A DNA stretch of 64,000 nucleotides from a virus, in the IMG/VR virus record IMGVR_UViG_3300034072_001093, positions 11,062-75,061 of that record; one strand, given 5' to 3'. The notes beneath the pieces are model-generated. The model worked only from the letters and a program-made list of their open reading frames with translations. It made no database searches and had not been told where the DNA came from. Shown here piece after piece: positions 21,380 through 54,899 of the stretch. The first letter of the stretch is position 1. Every line of letters starts with the position of its first letter. A program made the translations under genes and the position numbers.

Positions 21380-21408
21380 GCGCTCCTTGGTTCTGGAAAT
21401 GGGTGGGC

Positions 21409-21570
21409 TCATTCCTCGGTCGAAGGCGAGAAGAGCTTCAGGATCCACCTGACGATCACGAATGCTCCGACGATCATCAGCACGGTTGGGAGGGCGGAAA
21501 TGATGGCCGGGACGACATACGCCCCGACCACCAGGATGACTGCGATTGACAGCCAGTGTTCTGTTTTCAT
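21409..21570 (-). CDS. Small membrane protein (2 TM)
   Basis: 53 aa with two hydrophobic stretches. Confidence 0.55.
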   Translation of the reverse strand: MKTEHWLSIAVILVVGAYVVPAIISALPTVLMIVGAFVIVRWILKLFSPSTEE

Positions 21571-23337: not shown

Positions 23338-23473
23338 TCTGGGTTTTTGATGCTTTTTTCGAGATATTTTTCGTGTGTTTTTCGTCTCTTGAAAGCGGTT
23401 GCTGGCAGTTTTTTACAGGGTCTGCCAACCTGATCCCCTCGACGGATTTGCGCCCCGTTGAGAGGGAATGGGG

Positions 23474-28210: not shown

Positions 28211-28239
28211 AGAATAATGGCAGTGTGCATTTATGTAAA
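28211..28239 (-). promoter_or_regulatory. sigma70-like promoter TTTACA-N17-TATTCT
   Basis: -35 at 28234-28239 and -10 at 28211-28216, 17-bp spacer, AT-rich intergenic context. Confidence 0.55.
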
Positions 28240-28267
28240 CACACACTATGTTGACATTTGATAAGAC

Positions 28268-30931
28268 TTAGGCAACCGCGCTCACGATTGCTTCAGTAAT
28301 ATCATCCGCCGTTGCGTCGTTCGCTATTTCAATTTCTTTGCTCCAATCAGGATAGAAGATGGACAGAGCCCCACCAAGCTTCACTTTATCGTGAGCTATA
28401 TCTGGGTGGTCTTGCCATCTGACGGCTTGAACGAGGTGTTTGTTGGTGTAGAGCACTGGCTCCATGCAATCCCGAATGAGGAAATATCCCGCATCGTGGA
28501 TCTGAGAGCATGGTCTGATGTCCAGACGGTGTTCACTCTTTCGGACTTTGCCCATGAACTCTGAGCCCGCTCGGGAATTGAGCAGACACCAGCTTTGTCC
28601 GAAGGCATTGCCTGCAGATCGGGCTTCTGCTTCTGCTTCGAATGGGGTCTTCCGGTTACCCCGGATGACCTGCTTCAGCAGCGGCGTGCGGACACGAAGG
28701 CCAAAGGCCACCGTGACATAGCCGGTCTTGCTCGCCTCCTGGATCTTGTTCCAGATCCATTCGTCGCTGACTTTGTAGAGCTCATGGTAGCGGGTCTCGA
28801 TCGCGATCGCTTGTTCCTTGTTGAGGCCCGTCTGTTCGACGATCCCTTTCCAGGTGCCACCATAGGTGAGCAGGAAGGTCGGAACCTTGCTCTCCTGCCG
28901 TTCGACAGGATAGGCTTTGGCGATCGAGTTGATGCTCACCACCGAGTTGGGATCAATGCCCTCCATGCGATATCCGAAATAGGAGAACGCTCGGAGGCAA
29001 TGACCATCGTATCCATCCGTGTAGACCTTAAGTTTCTGAGGGTCCTTTGTGGTGAGAGCCGAGATCCTGTCTTCGAGGGAATCGAAGTCCAGCCCCGCAA
29101 AAATCCACCCAGGTGGTGCGACGAAGCAGCTCTTTATGAGCTTGCCCAGGGCGAGCTTGCCCTTCTTGATGTACGGCTCCAGTATATGTCCGAACCTGTC
29201 GATCATTGCCTGCGAGACCGCCATGAAGATGTTGGACGGCAGGTTCTGCAGGTTGGGATCGGAGCTGCTGAGGCGGCCCGAGATCGTGCCTCCCAGGTTG
29301 AAGTTCCCGAACAGATAATGCCATCCATCGGGTCCCTCAAACGCACCCTTGAAAGCCGGGATGAACGAGGTCAGCAGCTTGTTGATGGCCTTGAACTCGA
29401 TCAGAGCTTCGAGGAACTCCAGCACCTCTGGCTCAGTGGTGTGGTTCTTCAGAGCCTTGAGGGTGTCGCCGTCGGTGGCTGGCAGCTTGGTGTCCGTCCT
29501 GGCGATTACGGGCAGACCGAGAACCTCGTAGAGCAGCTTCTGGAGCTGGGGCGGCGAGTTGGGATTGAAGACCTCCTTTCCGTCGGCCGCGGTAACCCGT
29601 TTCTTCTTGAGCTCGCTGTTCCGCTTGATTGCCCAGGCCTCGTTGAGCTTGGTGGTGAACTCGGCGATGATGGCTGAGGAGTTCATGACCTGGACCGAGT
29701 GGTCCTCATAGGCCTGCAACACCTCTTCAACTTCGAGGACACGATCCATCTTGAGGGGCATGCCGGTCAGCTGCATCTGGATGATGTCCAGCGTGGCAGG
29801 CTTGAAGACCGTCTCGTAAATGTCGAGCTGCTGATCGGCCACCATGGTATCCCAGTGCTTGTCCAGGGTGAACCAGGTGGAGAGACCATCGACCAGATTG
29901 TATTCCAGCAGTTTCGGCAGCGGAATGTTGGTGATGTCCTTGATGTCATCCTGCGCCCAGTTGCCGGAGAACTCCTGCGCCTGGGTTTTGAGGCTGAGAT
30001 CGTTGCCCGCCGTGCTGTTGGTGGCGAGATAGGTGATCAGCTTGGTGCAGTCCCAGTTCCTGAGCATGACCTCCATGCCTTCCAGTAGCCCCTCGGTGTC
30101 GAGGATGTGGTCCATGAAGAGCTGGTAGATCAGGATGTAGACGTCGAAGCTGATCGAGTGATAGATCGCCTTCTGAGTGAACGCCTCGAAGAAAGCCTTC
30201 AGCAGCGCCCTCACCGGCTCGTTGCGGACCTGGCGGCCGAACGGAGCTTCGGTGGCTCCAGCGATGGGCTCATAGTCCACCGCGAAGGCAATCCCTTCGT
30301 GCTGGTTCCAGCACATGGTAATGGTGCCGATCCCTGCTGTCGGGTGTTTCAGGCTGAAGGTCTCGATGTCGATCGTCAGAGGCGTGTCGAGATCGAGCAG
30401 CTTTTGCAGCCAGGCATGGATCTCCTCGTAGGTCTGGGGATATTCAGCGAACCGGATGATCCCTTTCCCTGGCTCCTGGTAGCAGCCGACACGGTGAGCT
30501 GTGAGGGCCTGCATACCCTGCTGGATCTGCTGGGTGATCTTGTCCGGATCGTAAAAGATCGATCGGTAATTGGGCACGTACACGACCTTGAAATCCCCGA
30601 ACGGGGAGTCGAGCACGTAGCCCATGTTCGGCTCGACCTTGCGGACGCCGGCCAGGACTTTGAAATAGTCACCTTGGGCACAGAGGACATACTTCACGCC
30701 CATGTCAGTGAGGACAGGAGCAAGCTCCTCCTCTACATAGGCCTTCATCTCGCCGACCGGGGTCTTCTTCTTGTCGGGCGACATGAAGAGGTCGATCACG
30801 AGAACGTCATCCGGGTTTACAGCCCCGTCGGATAAATAGGCTTTCTGGATCTCCTTCGTCATGATGGTGGGAGTGAGCAGAGCAACCTCGTAGCTGCTCT
30901 TCTCTTCCGAGCTGTAATAGGCGTACTTCAT
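28268..30931 (-). CDS. Family A DNA polymerase (N4 gp39-like)
   Basis: Exo I DIETFS, SGRLSSSDPNLQN, motif A DFDSLEDR, motif B RQESKVPTFLLTYGG and motif C QIHDA. Confidence 0.95.
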   Translation of the reverse strand: MKYAYYSSEEKSSYEVALLTPTIMTKEIQKAYLSDGAVNPDDVLVIDLFMSPDKKKTPVGEMKAYVEEELAPVLTDMGVKYVLCAQGDYFKVLAGVRKVEPNMGYVLDSPFGDFKVVYVPNYRSIFYDPDKITQQIQQGMQALTAHRVGCYQEPGKGIIRFAEYPQTYEEIHAWLQKLLDLDTPLTIDIETFSLKHPTAGIGTITMCWNQHEGIAFAVDYEPIAGATEAPFGRQVRNEPVRALLKAFFEAFTQKAIYHSISFDVYILIYQLFMDHILDTEGLLEGMEVMLRNWDCTKLITYLATNSTAGNDLSLKTQAQEFSGNWAQDDIKDITNIPLPKLLEYNLVDGLSTWFTLDKHWDTMVADQQLDIYETVFKPATLDIIQMQLTGMPLKMDRVLEVEEVLQAYEDHSVQVMNSSAIIAEFTTKLNEAWAIKRNSELKKKRVTAADGKEVFNPNSPPQLQKLLYEVLGLPVIARTDTKLPATDGDTLKALKNHTTEPEVLEFLEALIEFKAINKLLTSFIPAFKGAFEGPDGWHYLFGNFNLGGTISGRLSSSDPNLQNLPSNIFMAVSQAMIDRFGHILEPYIKKGKLALGKLIKSCFVAPPGWIFAGLDFDSLEDRISALTTKDPQKLKVYTDGYDGHCLRAFSYFGYRMEGIDPNSVVSINSIAKAYPVERQESKVPTFLLTYGGTWKGIVEQTGLNKEQAIAIETRYHELYKVSDEWIWNKIQEASKTGYVTVAFGLRVRTPLLKQVIRGNRKTPFEAEAEARSAGNAFGQSWCLLNSRAGSEFMGKVRKSEHRLDIRPCSQIHDAGYFLIRDCMEPVLYTNKHLVQAVRWQDHPDIAHDKVKLGGALSIFYPDWSKEIEIANDATADDITEAIVSAVA

Positions 30932-30940
30932 CAGATTTCC

Positions 30941-31486
30941 TCAGTAAATCAGGCGGGTAGCGGAATAGGCTTCCATCTTCTCTTTGGTCTTCTCGAACTG
31001 GATCCAGGCAGGAGAACCAGGCTCCAGACAGAATCCCTCTTCGCCGGTTCGCTCCAATCCCTTGAAGATTTCAAGGGCCGGGATCACACACTCGGGAAGA
31101 GAATTCCTGAGAGCGAGGAGGTCGGGTTCGACGGCTTTTACAAGGCCGACAATTCCCTGCCGGATGGCCTTGCGGTCTTCCAGGAGCAGGGCATGATCAG
31201 CCAGGAGTTCCTGCATCTCTCCCTTGAGCGAGAGATGCAGGCCCCTCAAAGGTTGCCCGCGAACAGGGCAATCCGGATGCCGGTAGGCAACCCCATCGTA
31301 GAGGAATCCCCAGCGCCTCTGGCCCTCGGTCTTCTCCATGATGTTGTCATGCTTGAGGACCAGGGCGTAGACCCGCTTGAGCCAGTGTTCGCTCTCATGG
31401 ACGAACAGGTAGCGATCAATGGCACCGGTTACGACGTCCACGAATGCGTTCCTGGCTCTCTGGGCAGTCATGTTGACAGGCGGCAT
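30941..31486 (-). CDS. Hypothetical protein (N4 gp38-like position)
   Basis: GFLYDG and RNSLPEC motifs. Lies between helicase and polymerase. Confidence 0.65.
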   Translation of the reverse strand: MPPVNMTAQRARNAFVDVVTGAIDRYLFVHESEHWLKRVYALVLKHDNIMEKTEGQRRWGFLYDGVAYRHPDCPVRGQPLRGLHLSLKGEMQELLADHALLLEDRKAIRQGIVGLVKAVEPDLLALRNSLPECVIPALEIFKGLERTGEEGFCLEPGSPAWIQFEKTKEKMEAYSATRLIY

Positions 31487-31496
31487 GGGGGTTCTC

Positions 31497-32828
31497 CTAG
31501 TGGATCAGCCCGCCAAAGCGTGGAGCCAGGTCTCCGAAAAGGAAGACCCGCTCCCTGGCTCTCGAGAAAGCCACGTAGAGCATACGAGCTGCTTGGTTGG
31601 GGTTGGTACAGGTGCTGATGTTGCCGAGGTCGATGACCGCGGTTTCGTAGGTCGAGCCCTGGGCCTTGTAGACCGTGCCTGCGTCGAGGGGACGGAGGTC
31701 CGGATAACCCTGCTTCAGGTGGAAGTGGGTCGGCCAGTCCTGCTTCTTGGCGAAATACTGGATGCAGGCACGAAGGTGGTCCATGTCCATGGCAATGGGC
31801 ACGTTCGTGTGAGTACCGCCGCTGGCAGTGGCGATCGTTGCAAGCCGGTAATCTAGGGTCACGCCATCCGGCAGCTGGGCGGTCTTGATGCCGGTGTCAT
31901 AGGACAGGATCTTAACCCCTGCCTCGACCGAGAGCAGGCCATTGCGAAGCTGGACAGCGTTGTTGTTGACCAGGAACTCGTTGGTGGTGAGTTCAGCCGG
32001 CAGGTTGCGGATCTGCCGGATATAGTCGTTGAATAGGCTCACCCGCTCGTTGGTGTAAGCCAGGATGCGGTGATCACGGGTCGGCGAAGAGAAGTTGTGG
32101 TCGAGGACCGCCTGCAGATCTTCATCGTCGCAGTGATCGATGACGCCGGGGACGATCTTGATCGGCTTGAAGATGCCGGTCTCGACGGTCTCACGGAGCT
32201 GGTTGCAGACCTCCATCAGGGCTGTCTGGTTCGAGTTCCGCATCTGCTGCTTGAGCTCGACGAAGGGCTTGTTGCCCAGGAACACAGGCGAGATCCTTTC
32301 CATGACGGGAGCCAGCTGGCAGTGATCACCAACATAGACGATCTTGCAGTTCAGGGTGCCCTGGTGGATCATGTTGTAGAGACCGCTGTCGATCATCGAA
32401 CATTCGTCGACGAACAGGATCTTGTTCTCGTGGACCTTGAAATCCTTGCGCTTGGCGAGCTTGGATTTTCCGGTGTTGTAGTCCTCGCGGACGTTGAGCC
32501 GGAGGAAGGATGCCAGTGTCTGGGAAGGCCGCTGAGTGGCAACAGCCAGCACTTCGGCCGCCTTGTTGGTGGTCGCCGTCATGTGAACTTCGTCATAGAC
32601 AGGCGGCATGCCCATCAGCTGGCAGGTCTGCTGGTAGCGGGGCATGATGTCATCGATCATCAGGCTCATGGTGAACGTCTTGCCGACGCCACCCGGGCCA
32701 GACATGATCATCTCTTTCTCATTCGAGAAGAGGAAGTTGAAGAACATGTCGGCAGCTGCCTGCTGGTCTTCGTTGGGCGCAGGCTTCTTGGCCTGGCGAG
32801 CAGAGATGCTCGACGTGATCTGGTTCAT
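31497..32828 (-). CDS. SF1 (Dda/RecD-like) DNA helicase
   Basis: GPGGVGKT, ATTNKAA, VDECSM, GDHCQLAPV, YKAQGSTY and LYVAFSRAR. Confidence 0.92.
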   Translation of the reverse strand: MNQITSSISARQAKKPAPNEDQQAAADMFFNFLFSNEKEMIMSGPGGVGKTFTMSLMIDDIMPRYQQTCQLMGMPPVYDEVHMTATTNKAAEVLAVATQRPSQTLASFLRLNVREDYNTGKSKLAKRKDFKVHENKILFVDECSMIDSGLYNMIHQGTLNCKIVYVGDHCQLAPVMERISPVFLGNKPFVELKQQMRNSNQTALMEVCNQLRETVETGIFKPIKIVPGVIDHCDDEDLQAVLDHNFSSPTRDHRILAYTNERVSLFNDYIRQIRNLPAELTTNEFLVNNNAVQLRNGLLSVEAGVKILSYDTGIKTAQLPDGVTLDYRLATIATASGGTHTNVPIAMDMDHLRACIQYFAKKQDWPTHFHLKQGYPDLRPLDAGTVYKAQGSTYETAVIDLGNISTCTNPNQAARMLYVAFSRARERVFLFGDLAPRFGGLIH

Positions 32829-32892
32829 GGGTTTTTCCGTTATGCTGCTGGGGCTGCGTCCCCCCAGAAAAGAGGGGACGCATCCATGGAGA

Positions 32893-34551
32893 TCAGGCAA
32901 TCTTGGTCTTGATCACCGCGATTTCCTGCGGGGTGAAGCTGAGCTTCTCCCAGGAAATCTTGACCTTCTGCTTGTGGTTCAGGAGAGCTGCCCACTGCTG
33001 CTTCTCGTAGAGAGCACGAGCGGTGGCCTGACGGGGGCCGAGGCCAGCCATCGGGTCCTTCTTCGGCGGAGCGGTCTTGGTCGGAGCCTGGGCAACAGGA
33101 CGCTGATGCAGGCTTTTGCGAGCGCCCATCTCGTCGATGAACGCCTTCAAGCCCTGATCAGTGATCGTCGGAAAGCCGAGCTTTTCCCAGGTCCTCTTGG
33201 TCCTGGCTCGAATGGCCAGCAGATCTTCGGCCGCTTGGGCGCGGACCTTGCTGTGGTTGGCACGGCTCTGCATCGTGTCGATCAGGCTCTGGATGGACTG
33301 CGCCTGGGTCATGCTGACCTTCTGCTCGGTGACCTGCTTGCTCAGAGCCGTCGGATCGACAGCCGGAGCAACAGGCTTCTTGGGATCGGAAAGGTCGATG
33401 GCTTCAGCTTCCTGGCTCGGCATTGCCACGGTGACGTCGGCTGCATTGGGGATGGACAGCGCTTTGGTCTCGAAAGACCCGCCCATTGCGGAGGTGATAC
33501 GCACCTCCTCGATCGGCGGAGCGTGATGGCCGGCAATAGCCGCTGCGAGCAGCGTTTTGCCTTCAGGATGGTCGGTCATGGGTTTGCCTTGCTTGAGGCT
33601 CAGGAACATGTCGTCCGTGAGCTCGAAGATGATGTGGTAGCCAGCGACCCGCATTTTGTCGGGCTCGTTGTGGGGCACTGCGATGACGTCTTCGGGTGCA
33701 ACCTTGCCAAGGGTGCATGCCGTGCCGGGGAAGGTGCGGAGATAGCCACGACGAGCGACATGGAGACCGGTGGAGCACTGGGTCCGACGGCTCGGGTCAA
33801 TCAGCTTTTCGTCCATGCAGACGAAGCTGCCGACCCGCTGCACCACCCTGTTGGTGTGGCAGTCGACATAGGTGTGTTCACCGCGGCGGTTGAGCACCTT
33901 GTAGATGATGATTGAACCATCTTCAGCGATCGGCAGATCAGCCCGTTCCAGGAAGTGCATGAGCTCCTGGGCAGTGTGCTGACGCTTGGATGCGACGGTC
34001 GCCATACGAGCAAAGAATGCTTCCAGAGCCTTGGGCGAGCCCAATTTGTTGGCGTGGGCGATCTGGCGCTGCAATTTCTCTGCCCCCACAATGGGGGTAT
34101 CGTTGACGACGGCAACGACGGTCTGGTCTTTGTCCAGCTCATCGTTGGTCATCGGCTCGGCATGGGCCATGATGTCAGCCAGAGCGGCATCGATCTTGGC
34201 CCGCTGGTCCGGGACAGCGCCCATGGCGATATTGGGCACCATGGGGGCTTCCTCTGCGGGCTCGTCTTCGGAGCTGAACAGCTCCTTGATCTTGGCCTTC
34301 GCCACCCGGAAGAAGCGAACCAGGCCACCGGTGGATTTCTCGAAATCCTGGTAGTTGGTGGTGGGCGGAGTTTCCTCGATTGAGATGTCGACCTCGGCGA
34401 CCTGACGAGCCAGGAGAGCATCCTTGGACTCGTCGATGATGCGCTGAAGGCGGGGATCGCCCTGCTCGATGCGAGAGGTCTTGCCGTCCTCGTGGTAGAG
34501 GGTGAGGCAAACCTTATCGACCACCAGGGCAACGATGCGGAGTTTGGTCAT
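32893..34551 (-). CDS. rIIB: rIIB-like protein
   Basis: LPIAEDG.IIIYK, CSTGLHV, PEDVIAVP and KMRV motifs. Downstream of rIIA. Confidence 0.85.
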   Translation of the reverse strand: MTKLRIVALVVDKVCLTLYHEDGKTSRIEQGDPRLQRIIDESKDALLARQVAEVDISIEETPPTTNYQDFEKSTGGLVRFFRVAKAKIKELFSSEDEPAEEAPMVPNIAMGAVPDQRAKIDAALADIMAHAEPMTNDELDKDQTVVAVVNDTPIVGAEKLQRQIAHANKLGSPKALEAFFARMATVASKRQHTAQELMHFLERADLPIAEDGSIIIYKVLNRRGEHTYVDCHTNRVVQRVGSFVCMDEKLIDPSRRTQCSTGLHVARRGYLRTFPGTACTLGKVAPEDVIAVPHNEPDKMRVAGYHIIFELTDDMFLSLKQGKPMTDHPEGKTLLAAAIAGHHAPPIEEVRITSAMGGSFETKALSIPNAADVTVAMPSQEAEAIDLSDPKKPVAPAVDPTALSKQVTEQKVSMTQAQSIQSLIDTMQSRANHSKVRAQAAEDLLAIRARTKRTWEKLGFPTITDQGLKAFIDEMGARKSLHQRPVAQAPTKTAPPKKDPMAGLGPRQATARALYEKQQWAALLNHKQKVKISWEKLSFTPQEIAVIKTKIA

Positions 34552-36971
34552 TTCTGGGTTTCCTTGGAATTGCTCGCCACTGCCAGCTTGATCATTTCGA
34601 TCAGAGCGGGCCTGGTCGTGGGCGAGTAGGGTTCGGGGGAGTGGAGAATGCCGACGAGCGGGTAGATGTCGAAGACATCCATGAGCTTGTTGCAGGACAT
34701 CCTGATGATGGTGCTCACGAAAGCACTGTCCAGTTTCACCTTCTGGGCAGCGTCCTCGATAGCAGTGCTATCGAAGAACGTTGCCTTGGTCAGAGACCGG
34801 GCAATGCTGATGATGTTCCAGTCCTTTTCGGTGAGGTCCTGGACCACTCCGAGGGTAGACTGGAGCTCGGGAATCCTCTCGACGGCGTTCATGAAAAACA
34901 CGAACACGCGGGGAAGTTTGATGCGGGTGAAATCCCGAGCCAGGTGAGCCCGGATACGAGGGTTGGTCTCATATTCCTTGACGATCAGTTCAATCAGGTG
35001 GGCGTTGAGGCTCTTGGCTCCTTTCTTGATGTAGGCCTCTTCCTGGGTCACGCTGATGGTCAGACCGACCTTGTCAGCGAACATGTCCATGATGGCCTTG
35101 CTCGCGTCTTCGTTGAGGTAGTCGGTCAGCTCAGTGCCTTCCTTGCCCCGCTTGACGGTTAGAACGAACTCCGGTTTCTCAGACCGGGCTTTGACGCTCT
35201 CACTGCATGCGGGATCTTCCGGCATCGAGAAGCTGCGTTTCCAGACGCGGACACCGGACAGAAGGGGCAGGCCCTTCTTGACGTTCCGTTCGGCCCGGAT
35301 GATGGGCGTAACCACATCCGGTTCTTCCCAGGGTTGAACGATCGTCATGTCGAGGACGGTATACCCCAGGCTCTCGAAGGCTTCTCTGACCTTCGGGGTC
35401 TTGGTGTAGGTCCTCGGGACGATGAAGGTGATGACGCCGTGCATGGCAGCATCAATCCCCTCCATTTCAGGGAAGCGCTTGATGCGGTTCCTGATGTCCT
35501 CGGGGGTGAAGCCGATAGCTGCAATCTTGCGACATACAGCAATGCCCTGCTCCTGCCAGAAGTTGTCGTGCAGCCGCAGCTGGTCGAACGAATGCTGACA
35601 GGGCCGGTAGGAGTCACGCAGCCAGATCGACAGACGCTTGATCGGGAGATCCCGGCTCGAAATCGCGTCCTTCACCGGTTGAATGACCTGGCTCATGAAC
35701 CAGTAATTCACTGCCGGAGTGGCGGACGTTTTCAGCTTCCTGTCGATCAGAAGAGCATGGCGGAAGGATTTCAGGAGGTCCTTGTCGCCAATCCCCTGGT
35801 GCTGCAGAACACGAGCACGCAGGAAGAGCTCGTCATCTGCCATGTTGCCGTAAGTGCCGCCGTGAAGCCTGTAGCGAGCGAGACGCTGAACCAGGTGGTC
35901 AGGCTTGAACAGGATCGACCTATTCGGCACCGAGACAGGCATGGGATGCCGGGTATCGAAGACTTGCCACGCCTTCACGGGAGTGTCGAACTCGTTGAAA
36001 AAGCTGCGAAAAGCAACGTTGGCTTTATGCTCAAGATTGGCTTCAGCCTGATCGAGGCATTCCGTGATGAGCTTCTTGATCGTGGCGATCGTCATCGGGG
36101 TGAGAGACAGACTTTCCCGGCTCGGAGTGATGCTGAGGCTGTCAGCCGGAGCCTGGAAAATGATCGAGAGTCTCTCGTTTCGGCCAGCGACCTTATCGAC
36201 GAACTTCGACGCACGGTTGAGCTCGGCCTCATACTCGGCAGACCGAGGAACAGGGTAGATCACGTTGCCCAGGCGGATCTGAATCTTGTTGTTGTAATGG
36301 AGGGGCACCAGAAGGAAGCCCATCTCGGCCTTCGAGAAGGGATAGGTGTTGAGCTGCTTGCCGTTGAGCTCGACCAGCATTTCGCCGTTGCGGACAACCT
36401 CGTGAATGAGACTCTCAAACCGACTGCGGTCCTGGCTGGTCTTCAGGGGTATGTTGACCTCGACGCCGGTCTCTTCCGTGGGGAAGGACGCGATCGGCAA
36501 GATGCTGGGCTTGCCGTTCACCTCGGCCGAGGACTTCGACATGTTGTAGATGGTCCGCTCACCATCATGGTAGCTGGTGACCTGGAAGTGGTCGGTGAAC
36601 GAAAACGGTGCCTTGCAGCCCAGGCCGAAGCCACCGGTCACGAATTTGTTGGCCCGCTTGGTGGAGCCGCCATAGGTGCCGAACAGCGGCTTGATCATGT
36701 TCTTGGCGATGCCGTTGCCGAAGTCGCGGAAGATGACGGCTTCGTTGGTCAGGGTGACCTGCAGGGGCACGTTCTGCTTGCCGGCCTCGATGTGAGCATC
36801 CCACCCATTGCAGAGGGTCTCACGAACGACAGCCAGAGGCTGGTTCGAGTAGAGAGCGCCGGAGAGGACCATCATGAGGGTGGGGTCGGAGTCGTCGAAG
36901 GTGAACTCCATGGCCTCGCCACCGCCGATAACGGCGTGGGTAACGTGGTCTTCGTGATGTGCGACTTTCAT
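34548..36971 (-). CDS. rIIA: rIIA-like protein (GHKL ATPase N-terminus)
   Basis: LYSN..AVVRETLCNGWDAH, RDFGNGI, GGFGLGCKAPF and PSRESL. Confidence 0.88.
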   Translation of the reverse strand: MKVAHHEDHVTHAVIGGGEAMEFTFDDSDPTLMMVLSGALYSNQPLAVVRETLCNGWDAHIEAGKQNVPLQVTLTNEAVIFRDFGNGIAKNMIKPLFGTYGGSTKRANKFVTGGFGLGCKAPFSFTDHFQVTSYHDGERTIYNMSKSSAEVNGKPSILPIASFPTEETGVEVNIPLKTSQDRSRFESLIHEVVRNGEMLVELNGKQLNTYPFSKAEMGFLLVPLHYNNKIQIRLGNVIYPVPRSAEYEAELNRASKFVDKVAGRNERLSIIFQAPADSLSITPSRESLSLTPMTIATIKKLITECLDQAEANLEHKANVAFRSFFNEFDTPVKAWQVFDTRHPMPVSVPNRSILFKPDHLVQRLARYRLHGGTYGNMADDELFLRARVLQHQGIGDKDLLKSFRHALLIDRKLKTSATPAVNYWFMSQVIQPVKDAISSRDLPIKRLSIWLRDSYRPCQHSFDQLRLHDNFWQEQGIAVCRKIAAIGFTPEDIRNRIKRFPEMEGIDAAMHGVITFIVPRTYTKTPKVREAFESLGYTVLDMTIVQPWEEPDVVTPIIRAERNVKKGLPLLSGVRVWKRSFSMPEDPACSESVKARSEKPEFVLTVKRGKEGTELTDYLNEDASKAIMDMFADKVGLTISVTQEEAYIKKGAKSLNAHLIELIVKEYETNPRIRAHLARDFTRIKLPRVFVFFMNAVERIPELQSTLGVVQDLTEKDWNIISIARSLTKATFFDSTAIEDAAQKVKLDSAFVSTIIRMSCNKLMDVFDIYPLVGILHSPEPYSPTTRPALIEMIKLAVASNSKETQK

Positions 36972-37067
36972 GATGGCTTCCTTGGTTCTGGGTTTAGGAC
37001 GCACAGGGCCAGCCCACCCCCGGAGGGGGTTGGCGGCTCCTGTGCTGTCTGGTCTGATGGTTAGGGG

Positions 37068-37514
37068 TTAGACAAAGTGGTCGAGGAAGGGCGGCGAGTA
37101 GGCCGGCCCCTTCGTAATCTTGCCGTTCTCGTCGAAGATGGGATTGCCCTCTTCGTCGAACTTCGACCAGTTGGATCGATCGACCTCATCGAGTGCCTCC
37201 TCGATGTGCAACCCCAGAAAAACCCCCACACCGGTAGCCGTCACGACCTGATCGCAGAGAGAGTCGAGAAACTCCTTGCGGTCATCGGTCATGATCGGAG
37301 TGTCAGAGGTTTTCAGGTGCTTGGCCAGGGCCTCCATGGCTTCCTTGGCCTGCTGGCGCATGACCTCGCCGAAGCCGGATGTCGATCGATAGGCGTCGAG
37401 CATCTCGGCCACCTCTTCGAAGTGGACGCCCATCTGCACACGGATGTGCTTGGGCAGAGGCTCGGGCCTGGCCTTTCGGAACCAGTTGGCGATGCTGGAA
37501 ATGGTGTCGTTCAT
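37068..37514 (-). CDS. MazG-like NTP pyrophosphohydrolase
   Basis: EEVAE, DSLCDQVV, EVDRSNWSK and GKITKG. Confidence 0.8.
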   Translation of the reverse strand: MNDTISSIANWFRKARPEPLPKHIRVQMGVHFEEVAEMLDAYRSTSGFGEVMRQQAKEAMEALAKHLKTSDTPIMTDDRKEFLDSLCDQVVTATGVGVFLGLHIEEALDEVDRSNWSKFDEEGNPIFDENGKITKGPAYSPPFLDHFV

Positions 37515-37529
37515 TTGGTCTGGGTTCTT

Positions 37530-37838
37530 TCAGTTCGGGCGTGCAGCCCGGTATGCGTCGTTGATGAGGCCAGCGATAAAACGCCGAACGTCTCCCCGAA
37601 TGCCGATCTCGTCGGCAACCCAGTTCACCTGGTTCTCGGGCAGCTGCTCGAAGATCTCCTCCATGAATGATCTGCGAGTATCGTTCGGCTTGATGCCCAT
37701 GCGGGTCAGCCGGTGAGAGACGCTGGTGTGGTGCATCCCCAGCTTCCGTGCGATGGAAGCCGCGGAGAACCCCAAAGCGTTCATCCGGAGAATCTCCTCC
37801 TTGGTGTCGTAGAATTGTTCTGTTTTAGAAGCTGGCAT
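37530..37838 (-). CDS. HTH DNA-binding protein (type found upstream of rIIA in N4-like phages)
   Basis: GFSAASIARKLGMHHTSVSHRL HTH, then DTRRSFME. Confidence 0.75.
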   Translation of the reverse strand: MPASKTEQFYDTKEEILRMNALGFSAASIARKLGMHHTSVSHRLTRMGIKPNDTRRSFMEEIFEQLPENQVNWVADEIGIRGDVRRFIAGLINDAYRAARPN

Positions 37839-38225
37839 TGTGCGTGTCCCATTATCTTTATCGTTCGATGCAGACGTGCAGGATCGTCCGGAAAAGGTTC
37901 CGAAGTTGAGACGATCCTGCGGGATCAGCTAATTTTGCTATGCTGGAAAAGCATGGTCAGTGCTTTCTCCTGGCTCAAGCAGACAGCTTCGGGTCGCGCA
38001 CCCCAAGGGCACCACCCGAAGTAACAATCGCCAACCAAATACCCTGAGGGGGAGCGGATACTGGGATTGGTGAGACTGTCACCCTTAGCCCCGGCAGAGG
38101 CCACGTTCTGTCTACTAAATTGATGTTTGGTCTGGGTTTATGAGAAGTTGGTCGCTTCTATCCTATGATAGGGCAAGCCTGAATCTGGTGGCAAGCACTA
38201 TTTAGAGGTATGTCGACATTTCGTC

Positions 38226-38690
38226 TCAAATCTCCAGGAGCTTCCGGTGCTGGATCAGGTAGGAAGTTGCTCTTTCGAGCAAAGCCAGATCGTCTTTGAA
38301 GAAGCCCAGGCCGCGGTTACAGGAGCTGCAAAGCATGCCCCTGAAAGTGTGGGTCTGGTGACAATGATCGATCGAAAGCTCTTTCCACCTACCATCTCCA
38401 GCAGCCCCACAAAGGTCACAAAGACCGTTATGGGCGAGAAGCTGCTGAATAAGCTCTGGGGTCGCTTTGACGCCGATCCGACGAAGACGGTATCTCAGGC
38501 GACCCTCCGGATTGCCGTGATACCTATCGGAGGATTGAGCGTTGAGCTTGTCCTTGTTGGCCTGGCGATAACTCCGCATATACGCCTGATGCTGAGCCAG
38601 CTTATCGGGATCCGCATTACGCTTTGCCCTCGCTCTGGCGCATGCTTCGAGCTTCTTAGCAGAAGTTTTGTTAACCCTGGTCACGGTCAA
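38226..38690 (-). CDS. Endonuclease VII-like HNH (putative free-standing homing endonuclease)
   Basis: CDLC, IDHCH and RGMLCSSCNRGLG.F.D. The start overlaps the thyX stop. Confidence 0.85.
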   Translation of the reverse strand: MTVTRVNKTSAKKLEACARARAKRNADPDKLAQHQAYMRSYRQANKDKLNAQSSDRYHGNPEGRLRYRLRRIGVKATPELIQQLLAHNGLCDLCGAAGDGRWKELSIDHCHQTHTFRGMLCSSCNRGLGFFKDDLALLERATSYLIQHRKLLEI

Positions 38691-39583
38691 ATCTCCAGAG
38701 TTTTGCGAAACTGAATCCAGCCCGTGAAGTTCCCGTGGAGGTCAGATCTTGCCCATTCATAGGTTCCGTCTGGACGAGGGTCTAAAGCCTCATCAGGTGT
38801 TGCCTGATGCTCTGCAGGTGAGGCATGCAGGGGCTTGGAGCCAACGAGGCGATCGAACAGCTTCAGGTCTTCCTCGACGGTGGTCTGGCGGCCGTCATGG
38901 GTCAGGTAGCTGACACGAGCACAGCGAGCGGTGGAGACCTTCTTGAGGATGTCGTTTATCTGGCCAGGCATGGGAACGACACGCATGACGCCGTTCCCGG
39001 TAATCCGGTCCTGGGCTGCCTTGACGTCATCGCGGGTGATGTAAGGCAGATGCCAGTCTTCCGGAGCCAGGTGCTGAGGATGGCTGCTGCACAGAGCGTT
39101 GAGCATTTCCAGAGCCAGGACCTTCATCTCAGGCTGGGCATCGGGGTGAGCACGCAGCTCGAAGAAGTTCTCCCAGTCCGTCGCCGTGACGACGACGTTG
39201 ATGTGTGCCCATGGTTCGAGGATGCGATTGGCAATCTGCTTGTGGAGACCGAGACGAACCATCTCTTCTGCAGCTCTGATGCAGCAATCGAGAGCATCGT
39301 GCCACTCTGCGTTGGCATATGCCAGGTCATCTGCGGTGAGTTCAGCTCCAGCCTGCATCCCAGGCTTATTGCTGCCCCAGAAGACAGGCATGGCAGGATC
39401 CCGGCGAAGATCTTCGATCATTCGTTCGACAGGGATAGCTCGACTGGAGCTTGCGTTCCGCGAAAAGACCCTGTGTGTCATAAACTCCGCATGGATGAAC
39501 CTCGGGTAGCGTAGCTGCATGGTTGTGAGGCGGATTCCAGCAGGTGAGATGCTGTCCGCGATCACTTTGGCATAGATTGTCAT
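38687..39583 (-). CDS. thyX: Flavin-dependent thymidylate synthase
   Basis: RYPRFIHAEFMTHRVFSRNASSSRAIP, HKQIANR, ARCARVSY and HASPAEH. Confidence 0.93.
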   Translation of the reverse strand: MTIYAKVIADSISPAGIRLTTMQLRYPRFIHAEFMTHRVFSRNASSSRAIPVERMIEDLRRDPAMPVFWGSNKPGMQAGAELTADDLAYANAEWHDALDCCIRAAEEMVRLGLHKQIANRILEPWAHINVVVTATDWENFFELRAHPDAQPEMKVLALEMLNALCSSHPQHLAPEDWHLPYITRDDVKAAQDRITGNGVMRVVPMPGQINDILKKVSTARCARVSYLTHDGRQTTVEEDLKLFDRLVGSKPLHASPAEHQATPDEALDPRPDGTYEWARSDLHGNFTGWIQFRKTLEI

Positions 39584-39765
39584 GGGTCTGTGTCTTTCTG
39601 GGTTTGTGAAGTCCGAGACACTCTGGAGAGAGCCTCGGTTGGTCGACTTCAAGGGGGTCAGATGGTGCACTCACGGTTTACAGTGTTAGGGTAAACCTGA
39701 GGAAAGCTGGGGGTTTGCTGGGGATATGGTTTACAAGAAAATCCTTATTTTTCAATGATACGCAA

Positions 39766-39813
39766 GGAATCATAATCCGTAGGTCGGGGGTTCAAGTCCC
39801 TCCTCCGCTACCA
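39766..39813 (+). mobile_element. attP core: 3' part of a tRNA with CAT anticodon (tRNA-Met-like)
   Basis: GGAATCATAATCCGTAGGTCGGGGGTTCAAGTCCCTCCTCCGCTACCA gives an anticodon loop with CAT, a T-arm (GGGGG-TTCAAGT-CCCTC), the 3' acceptor strand and CCA. There is no 5' half. It lies ~60 bp from the integrase stop. Confidence 0.85.
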
Positions 39814-39871
39814 AAAAATCCCGGTAAAACAAAGGTTTAGAGGAGCGGCAAATTTCAGATGAAACCAAAGT

Positions 39872-40921
39872 TTACACGCCTTTGTAAACTTTTCCGCGCT
39901 GGGTCTTCTGGCCCATGCCGCGCATCTTTTGCGCCAAGTGCATGATGACCCGTGCGTTATCGACATATCTGAGCCGTACAGCGGACACTTTCTCCGAACT
40001 CCAACCAAGAATCTTGGCGATGTCATCGTCGTTGAGGCCGTTCTGCACCAGCTTAGTGGCGAAAGTGCCACGAAGGTCGTGAAGAACACGATCGAACCCT
40101 GGCGGAAACGATTTCCGGAGCATGCAAGACAGCCCTTGCTTGGTCCAAGCGAACCCGCGGCTGTTTTTCAGCACGGTTCCGGTCTGCTCTCTGCCCTTCA
40201 ACCATGCCCTGAGTTCAGGGAGCATGGGGATGATGGCCTCTGTTCCTCGCTTCTCGGTGCGTTCGACCCAGACAAAATTCTGGTCGAGGTTCACATTACC
40301 CCACTCAAGCTTGACCAGATCTCCGAGACGGAGACCGGTGAGGCTGGCGAGAACGATGGCGTCCATGACGTGCGTCGGGATCTTGGCATTGTGAATGGCG
40401 TCCCAGTGACGCTCCTCCCAGATCTCGTCGGCCTTGTTGACGCGGTGGAGCTTGGAGATGCCGTCGGCACAGTTGTGGTCGACCATGGCGTTCTCCCTGC
40501 CCCAGTTGAGCAGGGTGCTCATCATGACGACACCCTTGTCGGCCGAGCGGGGTTGGTCCCTCCACTGGTTCCGCCAGCCGTGGACCTTGCCTCGCATCTT
40601 GGCATCGTTGAAGAGCTCAAGGGGCATCTTCCCGAAGTGCTCGTCGATCCGGTTGAGCCAGAGACGGTAGTCCTTTTTGGTGGCCGGCTTCAGCCGACCA
40701 AACTCGGGGCTGTCCTGGTAGGCTGTAATGAGGGCACTCATTCTGACGGTCTTCTCGTCTCGATCTTTGTTCATGGCCGCGAGCTGCTTGGCGAGCAGCT
40801 TTTGGGTGATAACGGGGGGGACGTGATCATCCGTCTGGATGAGTGGTCCCCCCCGCCAGGCATACGAATAGTACCGATCGCCCCATCTGAGGCGTTTGCG
40901 GACAATGTGTATCCCTATCAC
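39872..40921 (-). CDS. int: Tyrosine recombinase / phage integrase
   Basis: Catalytic set R (TGLRLGD), K (TEKRG), HxxR (HDLR), W (LGWS), Y (RYV), plus an arm-binding-type N-terminus YYSYAWRGG. GTG 40921 chosen; ATG 40951 is an alternative. Confidence 0.93.
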   Translation of the reverse strand: MIGIHIVRKRLRWGDRYYSYAWRGGPLIQTDDHVPPVITQKLLAKQLAAMNKDRDEKTVRMSALITAYQDSPEFGRLKPATKKDYRLWLNRIDEHFGKMPLELFNDAKMRGKVHGWRNQWRDQPRSADKGVVMMSTLLNWGRENAMVDHNCADGISKLHRVNKADEIWEERHWDAIHNAKIPTHVMDAIVLASLTGLRLGDLVKLEWGNVNLDQNFVWVERTEKRGTEAIIPMLPELRAWLKGREQTGTVLKNSRGFAWTKQGLSCMLRKSFPPGFDRVLHDLRGTFATKLVQNGLNDDDIAKILGWSSEKVSAVRLRYVDNARVIMHLAQKMRGMGQKTQRGKVYKGV

Positions 40922-40925
40922 GACC

Positions 40926-41135
40926 TTAGTCCTGCGCCGCGAAGTAGGCATCGAATCTGTCCCGTAGCGTGGTCTCCTTGGCTGCCGGGGGCAGCTGCGG
41001 AGATGGTAAGCATGAAACAGTGACTCCATCTTCCCGGATGTCAACGGAGTTGGGCATGAAGCCGTATTCCCGCTTGAGCATGTCGAGGATGGATCGCACC
41101 TCGGTTAGAGGCACGGTACGCCGCTTTGTAGTCAC
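40926..41135 (-). CDS. Putative excisionase / recombination directionality factor
   Basis: 69 aa with a GGAGG RBS, directly upstream of int. Basic helix, beta hairpin (VDIREDGVTV) and acidic-aromatic tail resemble small genes coupled to alphaproteobacterial integrases. Confidence 0.5.
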   Translation of the reverse strand: MTTKRRTVPLTEVRSILDMLKREYGFMPNSVDIREDGVTVSCLPSPQLPPAAKETTLRDRFDAYFAAQD

Positions 41136-41279
41136 GAATCCTCCCTTGGTCCCGTGAAGCTGAGCCTGACCTGCTCAGCCGCACAGAGATGATTCTGTTG
41201 ATGGTCATGGTTTGGCACCGAAGTGCCTGGTCTGGGTTTTTACGGTGCTCTGTAAGGGGGGGCGAGCACTGTGAGAGGG

Positions 41280-41308
41280 CATATCCCGGATGGTTTCCAA
41301 CATGTCAA
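41280..41308 (-). promoter_or_regulatory. sigma70-like promoter upstream of xis-int
   Basis: Perfect TTGACA (41303-41308), N17, then GATATG. Confidence 0.5.
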
Positions 41309-41348
41309 CATAGCCTGAAAAGATAACATCGAGCCCCTTCGGGTAAAC

Positions 41349-41741
41349 TTAACATCGGTTGTTTTTGGGTAAGCCCTCCTGTCCGATATGCTGCTGCATG
41401 TTGCTGCAGGTTCGAGCTATGAGATGGCATTGGTAAACCAGAGGTAACGCATCCCAGACGTCTGATAACCAAATGAAAATGCGCTGTTTTACCGTGACAT
41501 CTTCAAATTGGGTCTTATCTGGGAGTGAAATGCCCGAAGGTGTTTCCACAGGATTATTCGATCCATTTTGGTTGTTGTTTGCCGCCTGCAGGAGGTCATA
41601 AAACTCCTGCAGTGTGGCCTGGAGGCCACTCTTATCGACCGGAATTTCGATCTTGTCGAAGTCCGGATTGATCTTGGCTGCGTCTGCCTGGGTGGTGAGG
41701 ACGTGGATTCGCTGCCCATCGTTTGCGGTGTAGAAGATCAT
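41349..41741 (-). CDS. Hypothetical protein
   Basis: 130-aa ORF coupled to the dCMP deaminase stop. AT-richer 3' half. Confidence 0.6.
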   Translation of the reverse strand: MIFYTANDGQRIHVLTTQADAAKINPDFDKIEIPVDKSGLQATLQEFYDLLQAANNNQNGSNNPVETPSGISLPDKTQFEDVTVKQRIFIWLSDVWDALPLVYQCHLIARTCSNMQQHIGQEGLPKNNRC

Positions 41742-44848: not shown

Positions 44849-46054
44849 TCAGGAGAGTGCGTAATCGGCGGCCAGGATGTCCTGGGCCAGGGTGTCATCG
44901 AGCTTTCCAAGGCTGATGGGTTTGCCCAGCAGCTGGCTGACGATGTTGTCGAGCAGGTTGCTCTTGGCGATCAGGTGCAGCTGCAGGTTGTATTGGCGGC
45001 GCAGGTCGTTGCCGTAGTTGGGGTGGCAGCGGAAGCAGTCGTGGACGGTGACCACCTTGAAGGGCTTCACAGGGAGAGACTGGATCAGGTCTTCGATCAC
45101 CCCTTGGTCAACATGACCGAGGTTGTCGGGGTTGAGGTGATCCATGATCCGAGCGGACAGGTAACCTGTGCTTTGATAATGGTTCCAGAGAACCGCAACG
45201 AGCCGATCATCCACGGTTTTGGTGGCCTTACCGTAGATCTCGTTTTCAGCCATCAGGAGGTCCCAAAGGACCTTGACTTTAACGGGATCATAATCGCACC
45301 GGCGGCCCATCTCACGGACGATCATGCCGTCGATCGAGTGGACGACATTCGCTCCCAGAGCACGGCCGCCTTCGACAGGTGCATTGATTTTGCGGGTGAT
45401 CTCGATCGGCTGATTGAGAACGTGCACAGTCTCCTTGACGGTATCCATGACCGGCGTGCGGACCTGGAAGTTGTCGGGCAGCACCCAGTCGTGGCTCAGG
45501 GTGTCCGGATTCCACATGGCCTGGAATGCCTGGTTGAGTTCCCAGGCACCCGGAGCTGCGTGTGCCATGGTGTTGTAGAAGACGTTCAGGAAGTTACCTT
45601 CACCAAACACCCTCTTAGGCACAGCCGTCGAGCCGTAGAGGGCCGTCATGATGGCCTCCTTGCACATGGCTCGGGAGATCTTCGAGGTGTCGCCGATCTG
45701 GTCCAGCATATACTGGTAGATCCGGGTGTAGGCGTCTTCACGCTGACCGGTGTTGACGACGTTGCAGAGCTCGGCCGCATAGCGATCGCCGATCAGTACA
45801 GCGAGGATCTGCAGGCCTGAGCTGGTGGCATCGAGCGAGATCAGGTGGCCGGTGGGCAGCTGGCGTTCAGTCTCACGCCAAGCCTTGACGGCAGCGTGGT
45901 AGAGGGCCGGATTCTCTGCCTGGTCGAGCAGGCTTTCGAGATCGTTCTCGTTGTTGTCGAACCAGGCCAGGCGAGTGTCCCAGGTCTCCTTGTCGAGACC
46001 GAACTGCGAGGCGACGTCGATTTTGATGTATTCACGAGCGGTGAAGGTTTCCAT
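44849..46054 (-). CDS. RNA polymerase II subunit 2 (N4 gp16-like)
   Basis: LDATSSGLQ, K.AIMTALYGS, ANVVHSIDG and VHDCF. Confidence 0.93.
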   Translation of the reverse strand: METFTAREYIKIDVASQFGLDKETWDTRLAWFDNNENDLESLLDQAENPALYHAAVKAWRETERQLPTGHLISLDATSSGLQILAVLIGDRYAAELCNVVNTGQREDAYTRIYQYMLDQIGDTSKISRAMCKEAIMTALYGSTAVPKRVFGEGNFLNVFYNTMAHAAPGAWELNQAFQAMWNPDTLSHDWVLPDNFQVRTPVMDTVKETVHVLNQPIEITRKINAPVEGGRALGANVVHSIDGMIVREMGRRCDYDPVKVKVLWDLLMAENEIYGKATKTVDDRLVAVLWNHYQSTGYLSARIMDHLNPDNLGHVDQGVIEDLIQSLPVKPFKVVTVHDCFRCHPNYGNDLRRQYNLQLHLIAKSNLLDNIVSQLLGKPISLGKLDDTLAQDILAADYALS

Positions 46055-47520: not shown

Positions 47521-47681
47521 GTGAGATGCCCCTTGTCGGTTGTTTTCTTGATCAGACCCCAAAGAGTGTATTCTTCGTCCTCAGTGAGATCCCAATTTTC
47601 AGCCCCCATTTCCCTCTGCACCTCATCAGTGTGGATGAGGCGGATGAGTGCTTTGACTTCTTCTTTGGTCAGTTCGATCAC
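47517..47681 (-). CDS. Hypothetical protein
   Basis: GTG overlaps the RNAP1 stop. AAGGAG RBS. Confidence 0.5.
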   Translation of the reverse strand: MIELTKEEVKALIRLIHTDEVQREMGAENWDLTEDEEYTLWGLIKKTTDKGHLT

Positions 47682-50126: not shown

Positions 50127-50196
50127 GTGGGTCTCTGGGTTTTTGGTAGGAGGAAAACAGAGCGAGCAACCAGGTTTGGTCCCCTGGTTACCCGCT

Positions 50197-50217
50197 CAAA
50201 CGAAGCGAAGCGACGTT
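50197..50217 (-). promoter_or_regulatory. vRNAP-type hairpin early promoter
   Basis: Template (+) strand C-AAAC-GAAGC-GAA-GC-GACGTT has the N4 early promoter geometry. Confidence 0.65.
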
Positions 50218-53055: not shown

Positions 53056-53114
53056 GATGTTCGTTCCTTGGTTCTAGGAGGTTGGGTTGTGGTGTGTGCC
53101 ATGGACGACACCAC

Positions 53115-53135
53115 CAAACGGAGCGAAGCGACCCG
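53115..53135 (-). promoter_or_regulatory. vRNAP-type hairpin early promoter upstream of gp2-like
   Basis: C-AAAC-GGAGC-GAA-GC-GACCCG on the template strand. Confidence 0.7.
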
Positions 53136-53173
53136 CTGATGGTGACGTCATGGAGTTGAGGTTGGAGAGGATC

Positions 53174-54830: not shown

Positions 54831-54866
54831 GGGTATTCTCCTGATGATGAGCGATGATGAGCACGC

Positions 54867-54882: not shown

Positions 54883-54899
54883 CCCAGTGTTACTGGTGC

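Follow-up and report, generated by a model that had tools for sequence, protein, structure and literature searches.

Candidate operator-type palindromes at the heads of three middle-region gene blocks in an integrase-carrying N4-like phage

Introduction

N4-like phages begin infection with an RNA polymerase that is carried in the virion. Because infection starts with this enzyme, an integrated N4-like prophage has a start-up problem, for which to our knowledge no explanation has been offered. Genomes of N4-like phages that carry an integrase have come to light solely in sequence surveys (PMC10654107). The virus record IMGVR_UViG_3300034072_001093, a phage genome of 75,061 bp with a tyrosine integrase gene, raises the question of which regulatory elements could serve such a prophage. 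An earlier note on the window, the 64,000-nucleotide stretch analysed here (positions 11,062 to 75,061 of the record, all coordinates being those of the window), had pointed to a short palindrome repeated at three intergenic promoters. It proposed that one regulator acting there may control excision and replication genes through the host RNA polymerase, letting an induced prophage bypass the cascade of virion RNA polymerase (vRNAP) and RNA polymerase II. We ask here whether these palindromes are real cis-elements and what they are most likely to do.

Three palindromes in intergenic DNA

The 10-base palindrome ATGT-YR-ACAT (ATGTNNACAT) has exactly three matches in the whole 75,061-bp genome. 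The sequences and positions that the earlier note gave for them, and for an imperfect copy beside the first, are all correct when checked against the sequence:

28248–28257, no strand assigned: site 1, perfect palindrome ATGTTGACAT
38210–38219, no strand assigned: site 2, perfect palindrome ATGTCGACAT
41302–41311, no strand assigned: site 3, palindrome ATGTCAACAT; the minus strand reads ATGTTGACAT and so contains TTGACA
28233–28242, no strand assigned: imperfect second copy, ATGTAAACAC, or GTGTTTACAT on the minus strand

In their context, the sites read TATGTTGACATTT at 28247–28259 (plus strand), TATGTCGACATTT at 38209–38221 (plus strand), and TATGTTGACATGT on the minus strand over 41302–41311. 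Each copy is symmetrical at 8 of 8 dyad positions around a central pyrimidine-purine step, and the copies agree in three more columns. The flanking bases are asymmetric (T before, TT or GT after), with one orientation at sites 1 and 2 and the opposite one at site 3, although the genes at all three sites run the same way. The flank comparison revealed no similarity among the three sites beyond about 12 nt, which counts against a function as operators. The element is 10–11 bp long, with a G+C content of 30–40% in a genome of 58% G+C.

In the window, the three matches compare with 0.59 expected, and 3 of 100 shuffles reach three. The full-genome scan that the earlier note had called for placed all three copies in intergenic DNA, which makes up 5.1% of the genome. 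After correction for the choice of motif, the chance of an equally good palindrome triple in shuffled intergenic DNA is about 0.01. Both results count for an operator function, as do the perfect dyad and the imperfect copy 15 bp from site 1. The gaps at sites 1, 2, and 3 are 134, 387, and 140 nt long, and the palindrome lies at the upstream edge each time, 10, 6, and 37 nt after the preceding minus-strand stop codon and 94–372 nt before the next start codon. No copy was found in the attP gap (39671–39871).

The half-site is also enriched independently of the complete palindrome. The pentamer TATGT/ACATA occurs 12 times in intergenic DNA, compared with 3.5 ± 1.9 expected, and none of 1000 shuffles reaches 12. 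A further, longer palindrome carries the same half-sites in everted order:

55839–55854, no strand assigned: perfect 16-bp palindrome GCACATA-TC-TATGTGC

Gene blocks headed by the palindromes

All three palindromes lie, as previously claimed, in the gaps that head blocks of middle-region genes. Site 1 heads the block of gp40-like, exonuclease, primase, Sak4, and SSB genes, the SSB gene standing 5 kb downstream, beyond two more intergenic gaps, a point against its control from site 1. Site 2 heads the block of gp35-like helix-turn-helix (HTH), MazG, rIIA/B, helicase, and DNA polymerase genes, 372 nt before the gp35-like gene. Site 3 heads the block of xis-like, integrase, and thymidylate synthase (thyA) genes. 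The adjoining genes are as follows:

28268–30931, minus strand: DNA polymerase gene, upstream neighbour of site 1
38226–38690, minus strand: endonuclease VII-like (endoVII) gene, upstream neighbour of site 2
41349–41741, minus strand: 130-aa gene, upstream neighbour of site 3
40926–41135, minus strand: 69-aa xis-like gene, GTG start after GGGAGGA, directly downstream of site 3
39872–41044, minus strand: tyrosine integrase, longest frame given
47678–48559 and 44849–46054: RNA polymerase II genes, with the palindrome-headed operons downstream of them

Scans against Rfam and for tRNAs gave no match.

Neighbouring sigma70-like promoter matches

Sigma70-like matches number six in intergenic DNA against 1.8 expected (P 0.012), which counts for an operator function; against it, this DNA is A+T-richer here, a bias that makes the motif as well as promoter-like matches more likely. 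Three of the matches lie on the minus strand:

28211–28239, minus strand: TTTACA-17-TATTCT, 9/12, inside a 12-pair hairpin (28248–28221)
38165–38194, minus strand: TTGCCA-18-TATCAT, 10/12, second-best of the genome
55768–55796, minus strand: TTCACA-17-TATAAT, 11/12, best of the genome; heads the minus-strand early-gene block and has A/T-rich DNA upstream

The earlier note had set each site at or just upstream of a host-type promoter. This stands for sites 1 and 2, which adjoin top-scoring sigma70-like matches of the minus strand (TTTACA lies 8 nt downstream of site 1 and TTGCCA 15 nt downstream of site 2), with hexamers, spacings, and positions (28239–28211 and 38194–38165) as described there. 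It does not stand for site 3, where TTGACA lacks a credible −10 hexamer; the best one at 17 nt, GATATG, fails the scan. A −35-like hexamer falls within the palindrome, in the same register, at site 3 (TTGACA) and in the imperfect copy beside site 1 (TTTACA). Measured to their centres, the three sites stand about −48, −56, and −33 from the putative starts of transcription. The geometry is not uniform, and the spacing to the hexamers differs from site to site, which counts against an operator function. All three minus-strand intergenic matches have a TATGT-containing palindrome within 50 nt upstream, which counts for it; the third of these is the 16-bp palindrome, 43 nt upstream of the −35 hexamer of the match at 55768–55796.

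Related phages and strains

A helicase-only search of viral contigs found no related locus. With alignments, the closest relatives retrievable from viral, metagenome, and genome collections have a helicase of at most 57% identity, too distant for a comparison of the sites themselves, and in them the motif is absent or at chance level, which counts against an operator function. A search with a back-translated peptide common to this phage and a 71% relative gave no match. When repeated palindromes were sought locus by locus in the relatives, shared dyads exceeded those of shuffles, none stood at the corresponding places, and the top ones were A+T-rich promoter-like boxes. Gene order differs at each of the three junctions. 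No relative has the integrase cassette. After thyA comes rIIA in the relatives, but endoVII and gp35 here, and in many of them an additional 0.7–2.6 kb separates the DNA polymerase gene from the gp40-like gene. The relatives also have one long hairpin with a T-run just before the gp35 gene, which is absent at that place in this phage. Strains diverging by 3–8% are present in public runs, those from sludge and drinking water among them, and their contigs span all three sites.

Alternative explanations

The palindrome could be part of a promoter, either an A+T-rich middle-promoter element of phage RNA polymerase II or a variant of the late ACATA box, which we consider unlikely. Its length and base composition speak for such a role, as does its position in front of middle operons, which themselves lie downstream of the RNA polymerase II genes. 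The minimal middle promoter of N4 RNA polymerase II spans −7 to +2 and is A+T-rich (Abravaya and Rothman-Denes 1990, summarised in PMC4496689), and it too is a short element that precedes the middle (replication) genes of the early/middle strand. AACATA is common to the palindrome and the late-gene box CAAAAACAGAACATAAG (four copies), and late start sites of LUZ7 occur on the early/middle strand too (PMC9163698). However, the N4 element has a direction, with its start at T, whereas the palindrome here is a perfect dyad without direction, whose flank is inverted at one of the three sites (site 3) though the genes are co-directional. Three promoters would also be few for a middle region of 23 kb, in which the strand-specific motif AAACCCAGA, with 19 copies including one 98 nt downstream of site 1, is the better promoter or leader candidate, and the late box stands 12–20 nt from start codons, much closer than the palindromes do. 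The hairpin promoters of N4 vRNAP and the middle promoters of LUZ7 resemble the palindrome as inverted repeats in the intergenic DNA of an N4-like phage, but they need a stem of at least 4–6 bp and a loop of 3–4 nt (PMC9163698), while arms of 4 bp around a 2-nt centre cannot extrude as a hairpin. It is less likely again that three unrelated A+T-rich 10-mers in A+T-richer intergenic DNA were simply noticed when palindromes were sought near promoter-like hexamers. The shuffle tests were run after the fact on a motif that was chosen after looking and has only three copies, and the looser ones are not significant: any 4-Nk-4 palindrome (k 0–8) occurs in three intergenic regions in 74 of 500 shuffles (15%), and a generic 11-mer with one wildcard is common to three regions in 35% of them, which is not rare. 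The dissimilar flanks, the lack of a relative with the motif, and the inconsistent geometry relative to the promoter-like hexamers would also fit coincidence. Against this, only 38 of 4000 shuffles yield a 4-Nk-4 palindrome triple with at least 11 invariant columns, as observed (about 0.01). What carries the weight is therefore the perfect dyad symmetry, the extra columns, and the placement. A rough product of chances for the upstream-edge placement of all three copies, by arithmetic, is 0.008; the enriched pentamer and the 16-bp palindrome near a third sigma70-like promoter also argue against coincidence. That the palindrome is real and non-random is supported.

Improbable, in our estimation, is a signal of operon ends or junctions, that is, a roadblock or termination-associated site, or a boundary sequence of module exchange. 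Such a signal would account for all three palindromes following a stop codon by 6–37 nt, far from the next start codon, and for their positions at junctions that vary among relatives (the integrase cassette, the order around thyA, and the extra DNA). A 12-pair hairpin with a T-rich tail directly follows site 1, and a minor strain skips the endoVII gene that adjoins site 2. By contrast, no terminator-like hairpin with a T-run stands in register with the palindrome at sites 2 and 3, the RNA folds of the three gaps have no feature in common and weak z-scores, and a match of ten bases is too short for homologous exchange. The sites themselves are not breakpoints, because the contig alignments of the strains run through sites 1–3. 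Several narrower candidates were rejected. An intrinsic terminator requires a G+C-rich stem-loop with a T-run, and the palindrome is A+T-rich and too short, the adjacent hairpin with its T-rich tail occurring at site 1 only. Integrase core or arm sites have inverted cores around an overlap of 6–8 bp, whereas the spacer here is 2 bp and the attP gap is devoid of copies. All three sites contain the HincII/HindII site GTYRAC at their central pyrimidine-purine step, but the conserved part extends two bases further on each side, and restriction avoidance of GTYRAC is not seen (76 observed, 69 expected).

Possible operator-type sites and their candidate binders

Perfect twofold symmetry is more in keeping with a dimeric protein than with the promoter of a single-subunit polymerase. 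Judged from the sequence features above, the palindromes are real cis-elements that we tentatively read, as the likeliest of the possibilities but short of an even chance, as operator-type docking sites for one dimeric, sequence-specific protein. One such DNA-binding protein would dock at the three palindromes, the host RNA polymerase would use the neighbouring sigma70-like matches, and binding would change the transcription of the three middle-region units. The arrangement resembles the dispersed operators of temperate phages (lambda/434-type OR/OL, P1 C1 operators, and L5/Bxb1 stoperators) in that a short (pseudo)symmetric site recurs at the heads of several transcription units, at or next to sigma70-type promoter elements, in a genome with an integrase. 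It differs from them in that those dyads are 14–20 bp long and the present one is 10 bp, that its copies number just three or four and vary in position relative to the −35 and −10 hexamers, that the phage has neither a recognisable repressor gene nor an immunity region, and that the early and middle genes of the N4 group are normally read by phage polymerases. The half-sites are 6 bp apart centre to centre, which is unusually close for helix-turn-helix dimers and counts against the operator reading, as do the small number of copies, the choice of motif after looking, and the looser shuffle tests. The placement at the upstream edge of each gap and the enriched pentamer count for it.

Two plausible DNA-binding proteins are encoded, which counts for it:

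37530–37838, minus strand: 102-aa helix-turn-helix protein, N4 gp35 homologue, candidate binder
20807–21448, minus strand: 213-aa protein with no relative in GenBank phages, candidate lineage-specific binder

The earlier note had named both for binding tests (the second as 20807–21379). For the first, the suggestion is weakened by its identity as a core gene product of N4-like phages, lytic relatives included; it is not lineage-specific and is present in 79 of 87 relatives without the motif and without an integrase. A fold search with the model of the gp35-like protein gave weak local matches to HTH domains of the LuxR/NarL type (E 0.14 or more). Residues about 25–118 of the 213-aa protein resemble a winged helix-turn-helix, which offers leads only. 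The binder may be the 213-aa winged-helix-like protein, the gp35 homologue, the 69-aa xis-like protein, whose predicted structure is poor (pLDDT 63), or a host factor. About 60 minus-strand proteins were compared with known families, and none was recognisable as a CI-type, Cro-type, or other repressor, which counts against the operator reading. The sites of IHF, LexA, and CRP/FNR and the NarL 7-2-7 boxes do not fit the palindrome, and a literature search with the 10-mers returned primers only.

A wider proposal, in which we place little confidence, is that this temperate N4-like phage gained a network of host-polymerase promoters under TATGT-type palindromes, letting the prophage restart from inside the cell. 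These promoters would stand on the strand normally read by phage polymerases, at the early-gene head and before the xis-int, gp35-to-polymerase, and exonuclease-primase-SSB blocks, and a prophage without virion RNA polymerase could thereby restart excision, replication, and, via SSB, late transcription. The bypass of the vRNAP cascade put forward earlier is speculative, and the strong sigma70-like promoter predicted at 55796–55768, at the early-gene head and absent from the earlier note, is a more direct candidate for it. Should the palindromes and the neighbouring sigma70-like promoters be in use, the N4-like family would have its first concrete proposal of regulatory elements for lysogeny or induction, and one with short, testable targets; if not, they are an ordinary small set of intergenic repeats.

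In the cassette headed by site 3, the nearest phage integrases, from alphaproteobacterial phages, are only 31–33% identical to the tyrosine integrase. Database matches to this enzyme set in at residue 44 of the longest frame, which probably puts its true start near 40925. The xis-like gene has a 72% identical copy in a related strain.

Genome layout

The phage is N4-like, and no close relative was found among GenBank phages. The ends of the 75,061-bp record, of which the window comprises bases 11062-75061, overlap by 127 bp, so the assembly is circular. The virion RNA polymerase gene (3,581 aa) lies on the plus strand together with the structural genes, and the minus strand carries the following.

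55763 down to 20807, minus strand: gene block, with the small early genes
47678-48559 and 44849-46054, minus strand: the two RNA polymerase II subunits, within the block
After RNA polymerase II, minus strand: middle/replication genes, comprising dCMP deaminase, 130-aa gene, xis-like gene, tyrosine integrase and thymidylate synthase; endonuclease VII-like gene, 102-aa HTH protein, MazG, rIIA, rIIB and Dda-like helicase; DNA polymerase, gp40-like gene, exonuclease, primase, Sak4, SSB and RuvC

A frame still open at the window end (60532-64000) and a 1,336-aa frame starting the record (genome 40-4050) may encode one very large late protein across the circular junction.

Palindromes in three intergenic gaps

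The earlier note described three ATGT-NN-ACAT palindromes, whose sequences and coordinates all proved right. The distances below are in minus-strand reading.

28248-28257: site 1, beginning 10 nt past the DNA polymerase stop codon, gap of 134 nt
38210-38219: site 2, beginning 6 nt past the stop codon of the endonuclease VII-like gene, gap of 387 nt
41302-41311: site 3, beginning 37 nt past the stop codon of the 130-aa gene, gap of 140 nt

A search for ATGTNNACAT gives three hits in the window, where 0.59 would be expected, and the full 75,061-bp genome likewise holds three. All three are intergenic; under a simple gene model, intergenic DNA makes up 5.1% of the genome. The putative leader motif AAACCCAGA follows each palindrome 62-98 nt downstream. 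The sites also agree at three positions besides the core, namely a T ahead of the palindrome, a central G and, two bases behind the palindrome, another T, provided that site 3 is read on the strand opposite to sites 1 and 2; alignment of the three flanks revealed no further likeness.

For a motif specified in advance these counts would look strong, but this one had been picked after reading the sequence, and motif classes were therefore tested against dinucleotide-shuffled intergenic DNA. Any 4-Nk-4 palindrome occurred in three intergenic regions in 74/500 shuffles, any 11-mer with one free position in 35% of shuffles, and a triple like the observed one, a palindrome with 11 or more invariant columns, in 38/4000. 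That every copy sits at the upstream edge of its gap contributes a rough additional factor of 0.008 by our own, likewise post hoc, arithmetic. The half-site TATGT/ACATA has 12 intergenic copies, where shuffles give 3.5 +/- 1.9; its intergenic density is 3.3 per kb, compared with 0.7 per kb genome-wide. This enrichment is independent support for a non-chance motif. Two of the twelve build a perfect 16-bp palindrome, GCACATA-TC-TATGTGC, at 55839-55854.

Promoter context

Under the criteria of the promoter scan, the genome holds 18 sigma70-like matches, six of them intergenic, where shuffles give 1.8 (P 0.012). Three intergenic matches are on the minus strand.

55796-55768, minus strand: TTCACA-17-TATAAT, 11/12, heading the early block; the 16-bp palindrome lies 43 nt upstream
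38194-38165, minus strand: TTGCCA-18-TATCAT, 15 nt after site 2
28239-28211, minus strand: TTTACA-17-TATTCT, 8 nt after site 1

Promoter-like matches therefore adjoin sites 1 and 2; at site 3, the hexamer standing 17 nt past TTGACA is GATATG. This TTGACA is inside the site 3 palindrome, and TTTACA occupies the same register in the imperfect copy beside site 1 (28233-28242). Relative to putative starts, the palindrome centres lie near -48 (site 1; imperfect copy -33), -56 (site 2) and -33 (site 3), and there is no single spacing. A 12-pair hairpin with a T-rich tail, which could terminate the polymerase transcript, overlaps site 1 as well.

Between the early block and the plus-strand genes lies a divergent control region (55764-56036) that is dense in dyads, namely the 16-bp palindrome, a CCAGGAA-N7-TTCCTGG hairpin and ATATCTCT-CTA-AGAGATAT. 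It also contains a CT repeat and the genome's best sigma70-like promoter, with an A/T-rich stretch upstream.

Relatives and strains

The nearest other phage on record has a helicase 71% identical. Among the relatives compared (helicase <=57% identical, N4-like prophages of Mesorhizobium and Dyella genomes included), the integrase, the xis-like gene and the palindrome motif are each absent. Their gene order is thyA-rIIA-rIIB-gp35-MazG-helicase; here gp35-MazG precede rIIA, which places site 2 at a rearranged junction. Site 3 is at the junction of the integrase cassette, and many relatives carry extra genes between DNA polymerase and the gp40-like gene, the place of site 1. Contigs of strains 3-8% divergent in public runs span all three sites.

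In relatives (loci L002-L081), the stretch from rIIB to gp35 contains one long conserved hairpin plus T-run, some 15-20 nt upstream of the gp35 homologue; ATACCTCTAGTC-tata-GACTAGAGGTAT-CTTTTAT is one example. The stems of this hairpin covary, with compensatory changes across genomes, and its role may be that of a terminator or of a hairpin promoter of the LUZ7 type (PMC9163698). This phage lacks such a hairpin and T-run at that place.

A minor strain in the source sample skips the endonuclease VII-like gene beside site 2 (38226-38690; 38256-38793) or has other DNA in its place, and a drinking-water strain departs at the same point; in its behaviour the gene resembles a mobile insertion.

Candidate regulators and interpretation

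Three phage proteins are candidate binders of the palindromes, namely a 102-aa protein, a 213-aa protein and the 69-aa xis-like protein of the integration cassette; no known repressor family was found among about 60 minus-strand proteins. The 102-aa protein (37530-37838, minus strand) is a homologue of N4 gp35 (41% identity), which is present in 79/87 relatives. Its model (pLDDT 83) has a three-helix HTH at the N-terminus; NarL/RcsB-type domains give weak local matches, and HTH_38 and sigma region 4 give weak Pfam hits. The 213-aa protein (20807-21448, minus strand), encoded by the last gene of the minus-strand block, has no match in GenBank phages. Its residues 25-118 fall among winged-helix clusters (MarR, HTH_24, DUF977) in a protein atlas, every score being below the level of more than a lead.

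Perfect twofold symmetry around a flexible pyrimidine-purine centre favours binding by a dimeric protein over use as a polymerase promoter, and the adjoining promoter-like hexamers favour an operator-type role. We tentatively predict operator-type sites, the leading reading, which is possible and short of probable. Few copies, closely spaced half-sites, uneven geometry and a binder that is itself a candidate count against it. A promoter element is unlikely, chance somewhat less likely than that, and a signal marking operon ends or junctions slightly less likely again; the remaining probability is unassigned.

The model of the earlier note, in which one regulator of excision and replication would allow a bypass of the virion polymerase, fits what is established for N4 (PMC4496689). 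Though hypothetical, it speaks to a real gap concerning integrase-carrying N4-like phages (PMC10654107). The strong sigma70-like promoter heading the early genes would be a more direct candidate route for such a bypass.

Integration cassette

The 69-aa xis-like gene (40926-41135, minus strand) is a real gene; 43 of its first 45 residues are identical in the copy of a related strain. In a related strain the gene forms a single 96-aa frame from the ATG after the AAACCCAGA leader. In the window (41135-41208, minus strand) a one-base difference near 41170 breaks this frame. Two pieces are left, an arginine-rich frame of 55 aa and the 69-aa frame, which begins at an internal GTG behind a strong GGGAGGA. 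At 39766-39813 the attP gap matches the 3' part of tRNA genes, and contigs of many different tRNA genes stack there, running on into tRNA 5' halves, which supports a tRNA gene as the integration site.

Other repeated motifs

Genome-wide, AAACCCAGA has 19 exact copies (15 on the minus strand, four on the plus strand) and, with one mismatch, 39 against 11.8 expected. After most copies, the start codon of a gene without a Shine-Dalgarno sequence follows at a distance of 0-12 nt, and the motif may act as a leader, as a translation signal or as a phage-polymerase promoter. Four plus-strand (late) genes, the virion RNA polymerase gene among them, are preceded at 12-20 nt by a 17-nt box, about CAAAAACAGAACATAAG; no sigma70-like match was found before the late genes. 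Three intergenic gaps of the early block contain CGCTTCGCTYCGTYTG and are candidates for counterparts of N4's three virion-polymerase early promoters.

9974-9982, plus strand: AAACCCAGA, example
23338-23346, 34553-34561, 44826-34, 50134-42 and 54290-98, minus strand: AAACCCAGA, examples
Window -6822, -6384, 9956 and 59353, plus strand: late-gene box CAAAAACAGAACATAAG
Gaps 54812-55118, 53056-53173 and 50127-50215, minus strand: CGCTTCGCTYCGTYTG

Several 6-bp palindromes are depleted genome-wide, including GGGCCC (0 observed, 10.7 expected), ATGCAT (0 and 8.8), CACGTG (0 and 6.4) and CTCGAG (17 and 54), which suggests restriction pressure by the host.
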